Assembly: GCA_040400605.1 (NCBI GenBank)
Contig: JBBAPZ010000002.1
Location: 97,576-161,575 of the forward strand
Reading direction: 5' to 3'
DNA length: 64,000 bases
Origin: Candidatus Sericytochromatia bacterium
GTDB lineage: Bacteria; Cyanobacteriota; Sericytochromatia; S15B-MN24; JAQBPE01
The translations under genes were made by a program, and so were the position numbers. Positions 17,594 through 25,403 of the stretch are shown piece by piece (positions within the stretch are counted from its first letter, which is position 1; each line of letters opens with the position of its first letter). The notes below the pieces were generated by a model. It did not search any database. It was given only the letters and a program-made list of their open reading frames with translations, and was not told the DNA's origin.

Positions 17594-19981
17594 ATGAACG
17601 TGATTCAAACCTCGGCGGCAGGCCGCCATCTGAGCTGGTTCACTGCCCTGAGCGTGGGCCTCGCCGTCATGGCCTGTCAACCGGCTGCCAACACCGTGAC
17701 GCCCTCCCAAGTAACCCCCGTGGCGAGCCCATCAGCGGTTCCAACCAGTCAGTTGACCGGTAATGTGTCCTTGAATGGTGCGCCCATCGCCAATGCGACC
17801 ATCAGGGTGTTGGATGCACTGACCGGTGCACCGCTCGTCGCGCAAGGTGGGGCGAATCTTGTTGCACAAGGCGGTGCAAATCTCGTTGCCCAAGGTGGTG
17901 CGAATCTGGTGGCGCAAGGCGGTGCCAACTTGGTCACAGACGCGCAGGGTAACTTCAGCCTGTCGGTGGCCAATCTGGCGCCGGGGGCGGTGGCACGAGT
18001 CGTTGCGACGGGTGGCGGGCAGTCTTTGAGCGCGTTGGTGAGTGGAAATGGTTTGACGGCGGGTGCGCCGGGGCAATACCGCATCCAGCAGACCTCGCGG
18101 ACGATCCGGGTCGCGCTGACGGCGAGCAGCACCGCGATCGCCAACGTGTTGGTCGCAGCTTTGAAAGTGGCGGCGCAATTGGATGACAGCAGTCAGTTGC
18201 GTGCTTTTGAGCGGATTTTCAATGAGGCCACGACGGCAGTGAATGCGCTGAATACTTTCTTCGCGACCAATCCGGCCGCCGCGCAGAACGTGGCGCAGAA
18301 TACGGCAGAAAATGGACAGACCAGTGAGCAGAGCCTGAAGAGCGTGGTAGCAGATTCTGGTGCACAAACCCAATTGCAGAATATCGTGGTACAGGCTGCC
18401 GAAGCGGTGAAAGAATTTGTTGCTGCCGGCGCGACGGTTGATTCCCAGCGTTTGGCGCAAGATTTGACGGTACCGGGGGTTGACATTGTGATCAAGGTGG
18501 ATGCAGCGAATTTGACGATTACCAGCCCGACCGGTGCGGTGATTTTTGAGTCTACGTTGCCGCCCGTGACCGCTCCGACCAGTGCCCCGACGAACGCGCC
18601 GACCACGGGTCCGACTTCGGCTCCGACCAGTGCGCCAACGTCGGCTCCGACCAGTGCGCCGGCGCCTGCCGGCGGAGGTGGCGGTAGCACGTTCAATCCC
18701 ACCCCGGAACCGACTGGTGTTCCGACGCCGACGAATGCGTCGCTTTTCGCCCCGCGGATCGATTCTTTCAGTGTGACGCCCACGAGCAGTGCCGATGGTA
18801 GCGGTCGCTTGAGTCTGACCATCTCGCAGGCGGCGAATACCGAGGACATCAAGACAGTGGTGGTGCGCATTCCGAGCAAGAGTGGCGGGGTCACATTGGC
18901 CGAGTTGCAGGATGCTCTGAATTCCCAGCGATTGTTTAAGTCAACCGTCAGTATCCCCAGCTCGGCAGACCCTGTTGCCTATGAGGCACGTCAGGTCGAC
19001 GAAAAGCTGAATAACACCGTTACGCTGCCTGCACGCTTTGGTGCTCTGCAGTTGCAGGGTCAGAATGCTTTGTGGACAGGTGAGTTTGTCCAGTCGTCGT
19101 TTTCTGGGTATCGTGTGCTTGGCCAAAGCCAGGGTCTCAAGGTAGCCGACGTGCAGGTATTTAAGGCTGGGGACTTTTATTACCTGACGCTTAGTTATGC
19201 ACTGAATGGTGGTGTCGTTTCGAACCGGGGGCACGTCACGACCATCGATACTGACCCTGAAATCTGGAAGACACTTTCTGGTGGCATCAAGCCCCAGATC
19301 TACTTTGAGTCGCGTGGAAACAACTCGGCGCATTACGATTACAATGTAGAGGTGACGCCGATTGCGATCGCGAGTCCGGAACCTTCAAATGGTTTCAGTC
19401 CTTCGGTTAGTTCCCTGAGCATCACGCCCAGACTCAGTTCGCCAGCATCGGGTGGTGAGTTGAAGCTGACTGTGACGCAAGGGTCGGATCAGGAGGACAT
19501 CGGCACCTTTATGGTTCGGCTGGCCAAGAAGGATAGCGCTGGCAATGTCGTCGCACAGTTGAACAGTGCTGAGTTGGCGAAGAGCGATTTGTCATTGTTC
19601 ACGTCGACTGTCAGGATTCCCCAGAATGCCAGCGAGGTGGAATTCTTAGGCGCGCCTTCGGCGGAGTTGAACGGCCAAATCACGTTGCCGACGGCATTTG
19701 GTTCGGGTTCGTTGAACAGTCAGGACGCCCTTTGGACGGGTGTGTATCGCAGTAAGTCCTCTAACCCTTCGGTCAAGGTTGCCGATGTGCAAATCTTCGA
19801 AGACTCCACGCATTATTATCTGGTGCTGCGATATGCGATCGATAGCGGTACGGATTTCAACAGGGGTCATGTGACTACCGTCGCGATGAATGGTGCGATC
19901 TGGTCGACCCTGTCTGGCGCAGTGAAGCCGGAGATCGTCTTTGCGTCACGGGGCAGCAAAGTAGTCAACCTTACTTTCTAA
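17594..19981 (+). CDS. Large lipoprotein with LVAQGGAN repeats, PTSA linker and duplicated C-terminal domain
   Basis: Lipobox VMAC; AAGGAG RBS; repeats visible in translation. Confidence 0.8.
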   Translation: MNVIQTSAAGRHLSWFTALSVGLAVMACQPAANTVTPSQVTPVASPSAVPTSQLTGNVSLNGAPIANATIRVLDALTGAPLVAQGGANLVAQGGANLVAQGGANLVAQGGANLVTDAQGNFSLSVANLAPGAVARVVATGGGQSLSALVSGNGLTAGAPGQYRIQQTSRTIRVALTASSTAIANVLVAALKVAAQLDDSSQLRAFERIFNEATTAVNALNTFFATNPAAAQNVAQNTAENGQTSEQSLKSVVADSGAQTQLQNIVVQAAEAVKEFVAAGATVDSQRLAQDLTVPGVDIVIKVDAANLTITSPTGAVIFESTLPPVTAPTSAPTNAPTTGPTSAPTSAPTSAPTSAPAPAGGGGGSTFNPTPEPTGVPTPTNASLFAPRIDSFSVTPTSSADGSGRLSLTISQAANTEDIKTVVVRIPSKSGGVTLAELQDALNSQRLFKSTVSIPSSADPVAYEARQVDEKLNNTVTLPARFGALQLQGQNALWTGEFVQSSFSGYRVLGQSQGLKVADVQVFKAGDFYYLTLSYALNGGVVSNRGHVTTIDTDPEIWKTLSGGIKPQIYFESRGNNSAHYDYNVEVTPIAIASPEPSNGFSPSVSSLSITPRLSSPASGGELKLTVTQGSDQEDIGTFMVRLAKKDSAGNVVAQLNSAELAKSDLSLFTSTVRIPQNASEVEFLGAPSAELNGQITLPTAFGSGSLNSQDALWTGVYRSKSSNPSVKVADVQIFEDSTHYYLVLRYAIDSGTDFNRGHVTTVAMNGAIWSTLSGAVKPEIVFASRGSKVVNLTF
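17834..17929 (+). repeat. 4 x 24-bp coding repeat (LVAQGGAN)
   Basis: Identical peptide units with synonymous codon differences. Confidence 0.95.
18571..18660 (+). repeat. 12-bp coding repeats (APTS/PTSA linker)
   Basis: APTSAPTNAPTTGPTSAPTSAPTSAPTSAP. Confidence 0.85.
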
Positions 19982-20101
19982 CGTTGGGTTGAACTTAGGT
20001 CTGATATCGGTTCTTTTCTGGCCGCACCTTGGAAGTGGGTGCGGTCAGTTTCCTTGTACGGCAATTGTTGACACGTGGGAATTGAGATGCAAGGATTGGT
20101 G

Positions 20102-21079
20102 ATGGCTGATACTGTTAATCGTATAGTGAGTCGTCGATGCTTCGGACGTTTGGGGGCGATCGCCTGGCTTGCCTTCGCTGCTGGAATTGGCGCCTGCAAC
20201 CCAGTGTCGCTGCTCGTTCCCTCGCTCAAGGAGGCGCCCGCGGCGGGTGACGCCGATTTTAACGATGAATTTTTACCTGGTGCACCGTCGCGGACCGCCT
20301 CGCCACAGCCTGCGCCATCCAGCCTGTCGACCCCGGCTGCCGGGACGCCGTCGCCAGCAAGTAGCGACTCATCGGGTCCGGCGCAAAGTGTTGTCCCAAA
20401 ACCCGGCGGCGGTCCTGCTAGCGGTGGTGGTGTGGCGGCGCCAGCGGCCCCGTCTGCTGCGGTTGGTGATCCCTTTGTGACGCCTGATTTTGTCGATATT
20501 AGCACGGTGAGCGCTTTTAAACCGGCTTTTTCCTTTGCGCTTCTGGCTGATCTTAGCCCTGGCACCTCGCCCGCACTCGAAACATCGATTTATCAGACAG
20601 CCCAAGAGGTCGAGCTACGCGAAGCGCGGCTGTTACTTGAAGATTGTCAGTTGCGTTATGACCGGTTTTCCAGAGGCCAGACGATTGGAACGGTCGTTCT
20701 GGATGTCGGAACGCCACCAAAGGCGACGCTTAGCGGCGCGCTGCGTGTTGTCGACGCTGGTGCAAACTATGTGACAGTTGAGGCGAAGGCCAGTAGCGCT
20801 GTTGCCAGCGCGTACATCGCTGACATTCGCTTTCGGCAGGTTGAGGGGCATCTATCGGTGGTTAGCATTGCAAACTTCTCCAGGGGCAACGACGCACAGG
20901 GCATCCACTTGACCGAACGTTCAGCACGGGTTACCCAACGGCTGGATCCAGGATTTTTGGTTTTGCCGCAGCGCCCCGGGCCGTTTAGAACCCGTGCGTT
21001 GCTCTACGGAGAAAATGACCCGCGTGGCGGCGGTACCCCACTTAAGGTGCTGCGCAATACGTTTACTGTAAGCGAGTGA
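20102..21079 (+). CDS. Putative Tat lipoprotein with Pro/Ser linker and beta-rich C-terminal domain
   Basis: SRRCF twin-arginine-like signal, IGAC lipobox; start uncertain. Confidence 0.7.
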   Translation: MADTVNRIVSRRCFGRLGAIAWLAFAAGIGACNPVSLLVPSLKEAPAAGDADFNDEFLPGAPSRTASPQPAPSSLSTPAAGTPSPASSDSSGPAQSVVPKPGGGPASGGGVAAPAAPSAAVGDPFVTPDFVDISTVSAFKPAFSFALLADLSPGTSPALETSIYQTAQEVELREARLLLEDCQLRYDRFSRGQTIGTVVLDVGTPPKATLSGALRVVDAGANYVTVEAKASSAVASAYIADIRFRQVEGHLSVVSIANFSRGNDAQGIHLTERSARVTQRLDPGFLVLPQRPGPFRTRALLYGENDPRGGGTPLKVLRNTFTVSE

Positions 21080-21251
21080 CACACCGTTTATTGAAGAGGT
21101 TCTCGCCACTAACGCATGGACACGGCAGCACATTCTGACTGTTTTCAGTATCAGGACGTGCTGTCTTCGTTTGTTTGGACTGTAATTGGGTACGGTATAC
21201 AGGCGATCGTTGCAGCGAATTCGTTTGGCGTATGATGCGATGGAGGCCTTG

Positions 21252-22838
21252 ATGCGTACTTTCCCCAAGCGCTACCGGGTTGGTGCCGGGTTCTTTGCCT
21301 GTGTCCTTTTGGTCGCGTGTCAGCCGGCTGGCTGCCAAAATTCTCCGAGTCAGAGTTCGCTTAAGGTCACCTTGGTTAAAGGGTCGGTGCCCCCTTCGGC
21401 TAATGGACAGATGATGATACGGGGTCAGGTGACCGTGCGCGATAAAACACTGGTCGGTGCCACGATTACCGCTTATGACGCGTTGTCGGATCAATCGCTT
21501 GGAGTGACCGGGAGTCCCGAGAGCGTGACGGACAGTCAAGGACGGTTTGCGGTCCCGGTTCGCAGTCTTGCACCGGACACCGTGGTGAAGGTTGTGGCGC
21601 GTCTTCGTTCCGGGAACCTCAGTGCGCTGGTTTTGGGTAACGGCCTTGGGTTGGCTGAACCCGCTGCCTATCGCCTTCAACAGACACCGGCGCTCAGCGT
21701 GTCGGTAACGGCTGGCACCACACTGCTGGCGCGGGTGTTGGTGCCAACCTTGCGTATGGCAAGTCAGATTGAATCCAAGTTGCAACTGACTGCGTTTGAA
21801 ACGATTATGCGCGAGGCGACGGCTGTACTCACGCAACTCAATCAGGAACTGGCCAAAAAGCCGGAGCTCTTCGATACAGTAGTTGCTAAAACCACAACCG
21901 CTGGTGATCTCGAAGAAGGTTCCCTGAGTCAGTTGGTGGAAACTGCAGGGATTCGATCCGGATTGCAGGCGATCGTCAACAACGCCGCCGAAGTATTGAA
22001 GCAACAGTTGGCTGCGGGTGGCACGATTGATGCACCGATCACCGTCGTGTTAGCGATCCCGGGTATTGACCGTACGGTTGAGGCGACTGCAACAGGCATC
22101 GTGATCAAGTCCGCAGATGGTAATGTGGTGTTTTCAACCGGCTTTAACCAGGGCTCCCCCTCACCCTCCGAGGCACCGTCGCCATCTGCCAGTGGTGCTG
22201 CCGGTGGCGGCGGCGGTGGTGGCGGTGCCACTGCACCAGGTGGGTTGCCAACGCCAAGCAACGCGACCAAGTTCTTGCCCGTGGTCGATCGCCTGACGCT
22301 GTCAGGCGATCGCCTCCGCTTCACCGTTACACAGCCAGACGGTCAAGAAGACATCAAACACGTCGTGATTCGGCTTAAGCGCGTCAATGCGGGGAATCAA
22401 TCAATGGCAGACTTTAATGACAGTTTTGCCGGTAACCTGAATGCACCGGGTGAACTGAGTGTACGAGTTCCGGCTGGTGACCCTGCTTTCGATTGCACCA
22501 TTGCCCCAGTCAACAAGTTACCCAATACCTTTAGCTTGCCCGCGCAGTTTGGCGCCGGTCAGTTAACCGGCACAAGTGCCATCTACACCGGGATGTTGAA
22601 GCGCACAAGCGACAGTTTCGCGATTGCCAATGTACAGGTTTTTGAGAACGTGAGTTTTGTTTACGTGGTGATGTCTTATGCCGCCAACGGCTTTGAACTG
22701 AACCGGGGACACATCACCGCCATGAGCGTTCCACGCGATCGCTGGACCACCCTCACCGCAGAAACCAAACCCGAGATTTATGTCGAATCTCGGTTGGGCA
22801 ATACCGTTCACTTGGAGAAAGCCATTCAGGCGCTGTGA
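21252..22838 (+). CDS. Lipoprotein, paralog of 17594..19981 with a single C-terminal domain
   Basis: LVAC lipobox; shared DAL..VTD.QG.F, LSALV.GNGL, NRGH.T, KP.IY.ESR; GGAGG RBS. Confidence 0.8.
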   Translation: MRTFPKRYRVGAGFFACVLLVACQPAGCQNSPSQSSLKVTLVKGSVPPSANGQMMIRGQVTVRDKTLVGATITAYDALSDQSLGVTGSPESVTDSQGRFAVPVRSLAPDTVVKVVARLRSGNLSALVLGNGLGLAEPAAYRLQQTPALSVSVTAGTTLLARVLVPTLRMASQIESKLQLTAFETIMREATAVLTQLNQELAKKPELFDTVVAKTTTAGDLEEGSLSQLVETAGIRSGLQAIVNNAAEVLKQQLAAGGTIDAPITVVLAIPGIDRTVEATATGIVIKSADGNVVFSTGFNQGSPSPSEAPSPSASGAAGGGGGGGGATAPGGLPTPSNATKFLPVVDRLTLSGDRLRFTVTQPDGQEDIKHVVIRLKRVNAGNQSMADFNDSFAGNLNAPGELSVRVPAGDPAFDCTIAPVNKLPNTFSLPAQFGAGQLTGTSAIYTGMLKRTSDSFAIANVQVFENVSFVYVVMSYAANGFELNRGHITAMSVPRDRWTTLTAETKPEIYVESRLGNTVHLEKAIQAL

Positions 22839-22930: not shown

Positions 22931-23456
22931 AATCTGTGGTTGGAATTTTGGGTCGTTTGCGCGCTGGTTGTGCTCACTGTGCCGCGCTTGCACCGATTCT
23001 GTAAACTAGAGTCCGGTCGCGATCAGGTCATCGTCCTTGGCGATGCTCGTCCGGCACGCCACACAACGGGTGGTTTGCGTTGGCGTACCCAGCACTGTCA
23101 ATCAGGCATTCGACAGTTTGACGCGGAATTCCCCGGAACAAGTCATCGCGTGTCTATCTGGCATTTTTTGCAGTACAAGAAGATTGCGATCATTTCGCGG
23201 TCATGTTGCCTTGAAACAATCATCCAATGCGCGTTCTAAGCACGTTGTGAAAGCCCTGAACCGTTGAATAAACGTAAACCATCCATCCGAACGACTTTTT
23301 CCAGCACCATTTCGCTCGATGCTGGTCGAGGAAAAAGGGTGAAACATGCCCAGCGTGACGGTGCGGTCTATGGCGCAATCGGCTAGGTTGGTTCGCGGAA
23401 TTGGGTAACAGCTCATAATATACGCTGTGCAACAGTTTTACGTCAGAGGTAGGTTT

Positions 23457-23667
23457 CATGTTAAAACAGTTGCATGGTAAAACGAGGCATTTTTGATGCA
23501 TGTTTAAACATTAGTTGGTGATCGCGTCCGTTTCTGCTAGGCCTTCTTTTCATGTGTAATCATGAAGTTTCTTAAACCGTTACATTGCTTGACGTTGGCC
23601 ACATGTTTTAACATACTTTAGGTGTATTGCTTGAATGTAGTTATGGAATTGAGATTTGTTTGACATG
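23457..23667. repeat. Phased array 1: five 14-bp CATGTTTAAACATG-like palindromes
   Basis: Sites start at 23457, 23499, 23551, 23602, 23654 (spacings 42, 52, 51, 52). Confidence 0.8.
23589..23617 (+). promoter_or_regulatory. Sigma70 promoter of the XRE gene, overlapped by array site 4
   Basis: TTGACG-17 bp-CATACT. Confidence 0.65.
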
Positions 23668-24072
23668 CAAGAAGAGAATAATGCTGATTCGCAGAATCGT
23701 TTGCGCCTGTATATTGCTGCACGGCGTCAAGAATTGCGGTTGACCCAGAGGGTGTTGGCGACGTTGTGTGAGTTGCCGTTGGGGACTTTGTCTGGGATTG
23801 AGTCTGGGCGGGAGGTGCGGGCGCCGCGGGCGCATACCTTGGAGAAGTTGGCCGTTGGGTTGCAGACGACGTATGAGCATTTGGATGCGTTGGTGCGCGG
23901 TCTGGTGGTTGATGGGGTTTCTGAGGTGAGTCCGTGGGAGGGTGATTATCGGTATCGGTTGTTTGATGCGTTGATGCAGGCCCCATCGGTGCCGGAGACT
24001 GAGCGATTGATGTTGATTGCCAAGATGCGCACTTTGTGGGAGATGCATGGGACTGGTGCGATCGCTGATTGA
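23665..24072 (+). CDS. XRE/Cro-C1 family HTH regulator
   Basis: RRQELRLTQRVLA...GTLSGIESG...P...TLEKLA.GL. Confidence 0.88.
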   Translation: MQEENNADSQNRLRLYIAARRQELRLTQRVLATLCELPLGTLSGIESGREVRAPRAHTLEKLAVGLQTTYEHLDALVRGLVVDGVSEVSPWEGDYRYRLFDALMQAPSVPETERLMLIAKMRTLWEMHGTGAIAD

Positions 24073-24600
24073 CCACGCTGTGAGTCGTTGTTCAAGCGTC
24101 ACTTGTTCACTGGTCTTTGCGCATATGATGGCGTACGGGCTTTTTGTCCAAGCCATTTTTGATTTGGGAGGGGTTTGGAGCGTTCGCTTCTCGCCAGCTT
24201 GATGGCGATAAGTTGCATGAGTCTTGTTCAAAAGCCTGCGTGATAACTTCATGAATGCCAGGCACTTACGTAATGTAATCGGGCAGCACCGAGCGTATGG
24301 TCACCAGTCAACAGAGATTGAGCAGTTTGCGGCAAAAAGTCCACAATGCGACGTGAGGGGCTGATCGATAAAGTGTATTCGTTCCAAATAGCGTTCTGAA
24401 AGCATTTTTCAGGCAAGGTGTACGCAAACAGGCATTCAGCGGAATTCTCAGACACTGGCTGTCTTGATGAAGTGACAAGTAGGCGGTCAACCCGTGTCTG
24501 TGTCGCGAACGACCCCCGCATAACGAATTAACCATCCTTGGTGTTTGCCGCAATTTTTCGCGTCACCACGCGAATTTTAGCCGTTTTTTTGCTTTCCTTA

Positions 24601-24852
24601 CATGTTGAAACAGTTGAGCGATATGAACAGGCTGCGCTCTGCATGTTAAAGCAGTTTAACGGCTCGGCTTCGGATAGACCAGATTCGTGATTTACATGTT
24701 TAAACAATTTGTTTTTGTGACGAAAATTTTTGTAAATGTTTTGACATGTTTACGAAGTTTGAAATTGGGTTCGGTCTGGTTGATTAGTTGGCAAAACATG
24801 TGTTTGTCGTGATGGTTTGAAGGGTTGTCCTGGTTTTGATTTGTTTGACATG
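24601..24852. repeat. Phased array 2: six sites of the same palindrome
   Basis: Sites start at 24601, 24642, 24695, 24735, 24787, 24839 (spacings 41, 53, 40, 52, 52); site 5 is mainly a half-site. Confidence 0.78.
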
Positions 24853-24995
24853 TAGGTAAGGAATGTCAATTTTTTTAGCGTAGTGCAATAGTTTTGGGGT
24901 TTGTTCGGGCTTGTGCACAGCCGTGTGGAAAGTTTGCTACACTGTTTGGTTGTCGGTGCTTGGATACAGTTGTGAAGTCTTGGGAGAATGTGAAC

Positions 24996-25403
24996 ATGGC
25001 AAAGACGCCGCGGGTGCTCATTGGGAAGCCTGGCCTGGATGGTCACGACCGGGGCGCGAAGATTGTGGCGCGGGCTTTGCGTGATGCCGGGATGGAGGTC
25101 ATTTATACGGGGTTGCACATGACGCCTGGGGAGATTGTACAGGCAGCATTGCAGGAGGATGTTGATGTTGTTGGGTTGAGTCTTTTGTCGGGTGCGCATG
25201 GCACGTTGGTGCCGGCGGTTTGCGCGTTGTTGCGTGCGTCCGGTGCGGAGGATGTGTTGGTGTTTGTGGGAGGCATTATTCCTGAGGCCGATGTTCCGGC
25301 TTTGGAGGCGGCGGGTGTGCTTGGGGTTTATGGGCCGGGGACGCCAACGGCAGCGATTGTCGATGCCATCAACGGTGCTGTTGCCGCGCGACACGTTGAA
25401 TAG
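24996..25403 (+). CDS. Cobalamin-binding small subunit of an acyl-CoA mutase (MCM/IcmB-like)
   Basis: [33 protein letters not shown]. Confidence 0.93.

Follow-up and report, generated by a model that had tools for sequence, protein, structure and literature searches.

Helically phased palindrome arrays bracket a conserved XRE regulator gene in one Sericytochromatia family

What is built on eleven palindromes that lie on both sides of a single regulator gene, all turned toward the same face of the helix? This question is raised by a locus in the window, the 64,000-nucleotide stretch of a Sericytochromatia genome, in which two groups of sites enclose the gene of a Cro/C1-type (XRE) protein:

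23455..23669, no strand assigned: upstream array, five 18-bp palindromic sites starting at 23455, 23497, 23549, 23600 and 23652
23665..24072, + strand: single-copy gene for an XRE/Cro-C1 regulator of 135 aa, with an N-terminal HTH_3 domain and a conserved C-terminal helical hairpin
24599..24854, no strand assigned: downstream array, six 18-bp palindromic sites starting at 24599, 24640, 24693, 24733, 24785 and 24837

The eleven palindromes, with their positions and spacings, had been described in a sequence-only reading of this DNA, and all of them are present. The upstream spacings of 42, 52, 51 and 52 bp correspond to 4, 5, 5 and 5 helical turns, the downstream spacings of 41, 53, 40, 52 and 52 bp to 4, 5, 4, 5 and 5 turns, and upstream site 5 covers the ATG start codon of the XRE gene. 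On a matrix derived only from orthologous loci, the upstream sites score 10.2–16.0 bits. The 14-bp motif of the sequence-only reading is indeed a palindrome, but its CATG-rich 14-mer is the variant of the window genome, the family motif being 18 bp long. Nine of the 11 sites lie within five mismatches of that 14-mer; the end sites at 23654 and 24839 exceed this number and score 12.0 and 12.5 bits on the matrix trained without the window. That the first sites of the two arrays are identical at 15 of 16 positions, and the last sites over 15 bp, is real. The shared polarity read from these matches holds in the window genome but is peculiar to it, since four of the six orthologous loci show only 10–12-bp matches and two show none. 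In an independent run (X3), a single contig spans the entire stretch, differing at 10 positions and by 1 gap, so the arrays are no assembly artefact. The last downstream site has ATG-TAG at its end, where its identical upstream counterpart supplies the start codon of XRE. The downstream copy continues (window 24847–24870) into an inverted repeat, TTGACAT-N11-ATGTCAA, whose right arm is missing from a diverged strain.

The locus is assembled in seven genomes of one Sericytochromatia family, including the window genome (G000) and spanning six genera. The family comprises non-photosynthetic relatives of cyanobacteria, and its seven genomes are kin, not independent samples. De novo EM analysis of the six orthologous loci, with the window excluded, yielded an 18-bp palindrome, YGCWTGY-N4-RCAWGCR, with log-likelihoods of 297–334 against 26–37 in shuffles (334 versus 26–37 at width 16). 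The resulting matrix recovers all 11 window sites, although individual sites are degenerate, with about 14–15 bits each and a free 4-bp centre. In all seven genomes, the single-copy XRE gene is preceded by 4–6 sites and followed by 6, counts that include seven weak sites added by hand because they were in phase. For this reason, the unbiased test of phasing is the scan at a 6-bit threshold. There, 55 of 55 adjacent ortholog spacings fell within 3 bp of a multiple of 10.5 bp, 51 of them measuring 40–44, 50–55, 60–65 or 74 bp. The phase score was 0.74, whereas none of the 2000 permutations exceeded 0.30 (p = 5e-4, the lowest value that this number of permutations can give), and the best-fitting site period was 10.485.

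Between genomes, the spacers vary only by whole helical turns (4–7). Upstream turn patterns are conserved position by position (4,6,5,5 versus 4,7,5,5 versus 4,5,5,5 among them), and a downstream pattern of 5/6,4,5,5,4 is found in four of the seven genomes. Orthologous spacers of equal length are 30% identical (n = 32) compared with 56% for the sites (n = 176). Similarly, in the downstream array of a diverged strain, 3 of 56 site bases have changed versus 28 of 134 spacer bases (p = 0.005), a count resting on the 31 differences listed out of 41. Genome-specific variants of the motif are common to both arrays (11.4 matches within versus 10.7 between, p = 5e-4). Phasing conserved in this way is, as read from the sequence, a signature of proteins interacting on one DNA face. 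Because whole-turn spacing persists in all seven genomes while spacer sequence and length change, the earlier proposal of a higher-order nucleoprotein complex on one face of the DNA is well supported.

Whether the motif also occurs at similar density, or in other arrays, elsewhere was addressed by a scan of the window genome with the ortholog-trained matrix, which revealed neither a second array nor an excess of the motif. The two arrays are the only clusters of at least four sites in the 3.71-Mb assembly, and are therefore not attributable to chance; two further clusters of three sites are both unphased. At 12 bits, 187 matches were observed against a Markov expectation of 198–236, and at or above 14 bits the matches fall slightly short of simulation (34 versus 49–76). 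Site pairs of the window genome lying outside the arrays showed no clear phase bias, the largest tilt being 6 versus 1. A three-site pattern detected three of the eight family genomes and matched only the XRE locus there.

Isolated perfect sites elsewhere in the relatives are either at an IS end or scattered. One perfect copy is located close to the terminus of a repeat that carries a transposase and is present at two contig ends (L029 and L030, on contigs C8 and C9 of G002). In G004, three strong copies at 21-bp spacing (L143, contig C371, 5531–5590) form a perfect hairpin in the gap between a Sel1 gene and a nucleotidyltransferase gene that are convergent; this triple site is missing from G001 and G003, the two other genomes with that gene. 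A looser two-site pattern proved noisy in G027, G001, G005 and G007, where none of eight matches examined was an array. Viral contigs matched the three-site pattern at a chance-like level, and two of 120 loci with at least four matrix matches were CATG-rich low-complexity repeats. Scans with the XRE protein returned one distant locus from metagenomes, where a single XRE protein served as query, and five distant XREs from viruses. At distant XRE loci, the de novo motif search was dominated by codon periodicity, and a motif-free array detector is uninformative on distant homologs since it recovers two of eight known arrays. No published description of the locus was found in the literature searched, which misses most subscription journals.

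Full-length orthologs of the XRE protein, of 125–128 aa and with 54–63% identity, are encoded in six of the seven other family genomes; in the exception, an assembly of 730 contigs, the mutase gene next door is missing as well, so that the XRE locus probably went unassembled. Outside the family, only HTH-level matches were obtained among 301 phylum genomes, and the named homologs come from Candidatus Sericytochromatia. Two more distant full-length homologs (P0051 and P0068) were seen, one of them sharing the recognition helix, and a 128-aa, Melainabacteria-rich Atlas cluster also figures among the distant homologs. The N-terminal Cro/C1 HTH domain was confirmed (PF01381, 32.8 bits versus a cut-off of 23). 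Its recognition helix (P38–R49) is invariant or nearly so in 49 homologs, and residues W91, Y97, F100, K120, R122 and W125 of the C-terminal part are invariant.

In the predicted structure (mean pLDDT 79.6), the HTH spans residues 6–78 and a two-helix C-terminal hairpin residues 95–128. Against XRE folds the model scores Z 9–11, and the HTH resembles C proteins, SinR, P22 c2 and DdrO to a similar degree (Z 8.7–10.8), with a Z of 10.3 and an rmsd of 1.6 over 66 residues for C.AhdI, and the modelled fold is that of a dimeric-repressor HTH. For the hairpin, no specific fold match was obtained, only generic helical ones (best Z 6.9), and the Atlas search gave leads all below 0.9. Prediction of a homotetramer gave no clear signal, with a score of 0.44 compared with 0.34 for one control. 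The sole natural PDB sequence match of the protein is 8bny, annotated 'Immunity repressor protein' (E 0.0045), which we take to be Rco.

XRE is the likely binder of the palindromes, with one dimer predicted on each. Orthologs devoid of flanking arrays would have spoken against the association, but the arrays bracket the gene in all seven genomes with an assembled locus. Conversely, none of the 21 mutase loci scanned outside the family (all but L078–L079) has an array upstream of the mutase gene, and these 21 loci also lack this XRE, in agreement with the expected co-occurrence of arrays and XRE clade. None of the distant XRE loci scanned (16 of 20), with their other recognition helices, carries an array. 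This co-occurrence does not single out XRE, because three orphan ParB paralogs share its distribution within the order. In the window genome, they are encoded at:

C5:191567, C12:23161 and C17:22164: ParB-family genes of the window genome (G000)

The surroundings of the arrays provide candidate promoters, a further short motif and a conserved downstream gene:

23589..23617, + strand: sigma70-like promoter candidate TTGACG-17-CATACT, the predicted XRE promoter, with its -10 inside site 4
24564..24571, + strand: motif B (CACCACGC), left of the downstream array and found in 6/7 genomes
24938..24943, + strand: -10-like hexamer TACACT of the mutase gene, TACAAT in four relatives
24996..25403, + strand: gene of a B12-binding protein, 3' of the downstream array in 7/7 genomes

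The XRE promoter candidate is weak when taken alone (9 of 12 matches; three such candidates found versus 1.8 in shuffles). A -10-like TAnnnT hexamer is nevertheless present within the last upstream site in five of the seven genomes, compared with 4 of 70 other sites, the window genome and G004 being the two in which that site lacks it. Judged on sequence alone, the locus thus comprises two multi-site arrays, one of them overlapping the predicted XRE promoter. By this overlap, the cooperative switch listed among the options of the sequence-only reading gains support.

The B12-binding protein is presumably of the methylmalonyl-CoA mutase small-subunit type. The neighbourhood is core chromosome, with M20 peptidase, histidine kinase, lipoprotein-like genes, yihY/BrkB, XRE, the B12-binding mutase subunit, LysM and folD; yihY was not found at the locus in the window genome or in G007. 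About 620 bp of non-coding DNA occupy the place in the window where relatives carry yihY. Three large lipoprotein-like genes lie at window 17594–22838, the first with tandem AQGGANLV repeats and the third weakly Ig-like. Motif B lies 22–86 bp left of the first scored downstream site, roughly in phase with it (R = 0.87, n = 6), and in the window it sits within a small inverted repeat. By eye it fits neither sigma70, sigma54, dif nor a coding frame, and it shows no enrichment over its control in the relatives.

We favor, with somewhat better than even confidence, a cooperative looped autorepression by XRE, of the lambda CI/Rco kind, unusual in its wide spacing and with no visible regulon. An XRE dimer would occupy each of the 11 palindromes, the likely operators, and neighbouring dimers would join across 4–7 turns of bare DNA, possibly through contacts of the conserved C-terminal hairpin, to form a looped or wrapped complex repressing XRE's own promoter. 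The downstream array has no fixed relation to the mutase promoter; its simplest role, we propose, would be to pair with the upstream array across the gene, as OL does with OR in lambda. The sequence itself does not speak for such looping across the gene, since one array is not significantly phased with the other (p = 0.44–0.54 with a free period, 0.04 at a fixed 10.5 bp). The likely outcome would be a steeply cooperative, self-limiting switch or homeostat. No regulon was seen in the window genome, which leaves the 11 conserved sites without an obvious output; the output may reach the mutase operon or scattered weak sites, or run through a partner protein.

In lambda, OR and OL flank the CI gene. 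Natural cooperative operators usually lie two to three turns apart, and Hochschild and Ptashne reportedly described cooperative binding across integral turns in 1986. The likeness to lambda CI lies in a Cro/C1-type repressor, homologous multi-site operators and, as predicted for XRE, autoregulation, and CI octamers loop over 2.3 kb between OR and OL (PMC3708714). Lambda has 3 + 3 adjacent sites, whereas the XRE locus has 5 + 6 sites spaced by 4–7 turns. Unlike CI, XRE is encoded by a chromosomal, vertically inherited gene, has no peptidase domain and shows no visible outward lytic promoters. The pLS20 repressor Rco (PMC4207663) is an autoregulated XRE-family tetramer acting on two multi-site operators (7 + 4 motifs), one overlapping promoters, whose phasing was probed with a +5-bp insert. 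It differs by its 8-bp non-palindromic motifs, by operators that are 75 bp apart and both upstream, by its clear target operon and by being plasmid-borne. The CI wheel of phage 186 likewise engages many operators on one DNA face, with wrapping and looping to distal sites, but those operators lie two turns apart on a rigid 14-mer (PMC3675496). The XRE gaps of 4–7 turns tolerate whole-turn indels, so flexible mini-loops would fit better than a fixed wheel.

By analogy, the system likely works as a looping, autoregulated Cro/C1 switch. It is set apart from the known switches by about 11 palindromes spaced 4–7 turns apart, whole-turn indels, chromosomal vertical inheritance and the lack of a visible target. 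Over six genera, selection kept about 11 sites on one face while the gaps moved between 4 and 7 turns. In effect, nature has here run an experiment on helical twist, and the arrays offer a system in which repressor complexes with several loops could readily be tested. For a single-copy regulator that is conserved, has so elaborate a site and controls no visible regulon, either an unusual kind of switch or a structural role is suggested.

The structural role would mean that XRE binds the arrays but that the product is a structure or a sink, such as an anchor for the chromosome or a device for titration or pairing, autorepression only tuning the protein level. Iteron arrays that flank plasmid rep genes are devices of the latter sort, a comparison for which the literature searched yielded only an account of oriC. 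A site number fixed at about 5 + 6 with positionally conserved turn patterns, the absence of a regulon among our findings and the invariant C-terminal residues of XRE are compatible with this view; we still hold it to be distinctly unlikely, the promoter overlap being explained more simply by plain autoregulation. Decidedly improbable, in our estimation, is a pair of separate operators without any loop, the upstream one serving autoregulation and the downstream one acting on the mutase and LysM genes or on some transcript near motif B that went unseen. The non-significant inter-array phase and an XRE-mutase link kept in 7/7 genomes, though yihY on the upstream side was not found in two, argue for it. 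The mutase gene, however, has its own -10 hexamer at a variable distance, about 90–290 bp, past the last downstream site, and the XRE-mutase interval contains no conserved small ORF or Rfam family. A replication origin, terminus or bipartite oriC, an option of the sequence-only reading that found no support, is very improbable. For H. pylori, a bipartite oriC that forms a loop has reportedly been described (PMC3479198), the locus is AT-richer than the genome, and full-length dnaA was not found in the 94.6% complete assembly of the window genome (best E 6.6e-8), where it is probably unassembled. Against an origin, full-length dnaA lies on other contigs in 4/4 relatives, beside DnaA-box clusters (9 and 8 boxes) in two of them while XRE loci hold 0–1 boxes, and in G000, G006 and G007 no change of sign in GC skew is seen at the locus. 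Repeat-spacer RNA, or an array of RNA hairpins, had already been rated less likely by the sequence-only reading and is now hardly credible. It would accommodate palindromic repeats with unique spacers, but it is unsupported because the palindrome arms do not covary. Arm pairing exceeds shuffled values at one of nine positions only (p = 0.018 uncorrected; 70 sites), complementarity is 34–63% at variable positions, spacer length jumps in 10–11-bp steps and there is no Rfam match.

The rival ranked second, a serious one though we think it unlikely, leaves XRE as a bystander or a clamp-locking partner and makes the arrays a sopC-like centromere, with loading sites for one of the three orphan ParB paralogs. 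Each of the eight family genomes has exactly three strong ParB_N genes, whereas 19 other genomes from the order have none at E ≤ 1e-20, and the HTH helices of the three paralogs are presumably non-canonical. Canonical parS was not found in the window genome (one 2-mismatch match) nor in four of five relatives, and the array is a single locus per genome, its motif being slightly depleted elsewhere. As in a centromere, the palindromes thus occupy a single locus on one helical face; in F sopC, bound by SopB, the 16-bp palindromes recur every 43 bp, 'almost exactly four helical turns', likewise on one face at a single locus (PMC3177203). sopC is nonetheless a tandem 43–45-bp repeat with conserved spacers beside sopAB, reported on plasmids only, whereas the XRE arrays have degenerate sites, unrelated spacers of variable length and no adjacent parAB. 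No ParA-like Walker box was detected within 1.5 kb at ten family parB loci, and the best AAA_31 matches are weak (E about 1e-21 to 1e-23, in 5/8 genomes). Nor would a centromere account for the overlap with the -10 hexamer or for arrays that strictly flank the XRE gene on both sides. G027, from outside the order, encodes four ParBs yet showed no array in the eight stretches examined, a weak test since its ParB helices differ. We rank a centromere behind looped autorepression by XRE because the sites are degenerate and the spacers not conserved, because an array overlaps the predicted promoter and because no ParA lies adjacent. Should a ParB bind instead, the arrays would define a new type of parS, in a group that is sister to cyanobacteria and has been little studied. 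A broader conception, speculative and in our judgment rather unlikely, treats the arrays as a novel landmark of the chromosome, an 11-site whole-turn scaffold on which XRE, or orphan ParB clamps held by XRE, would build one looped body per chromosome, serving as centromere, anchor or copy-counting device.

Another palindrome, TAATCCCRTGGGATTA, recurs in the window genome in ten copies over 12 kb of early-type genes (G000 C24:26047–37660), possibly as phage promoters or operators. This recurring 16-bp palindrome was rejected as a parS, because the contig is phage-like and the palindrome is not common to the relatives. Finally, extra 19-bp variants of the array motif, with a 5-bp centre, were observed at two loci, L004 (+503 and +662, counted from the XRE match) and L006 (+646, counted likewise). 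Of these, the variants at +662 and +646 sit 21 bp from a regular site, which suggests that occupancy at two turns may be possible.
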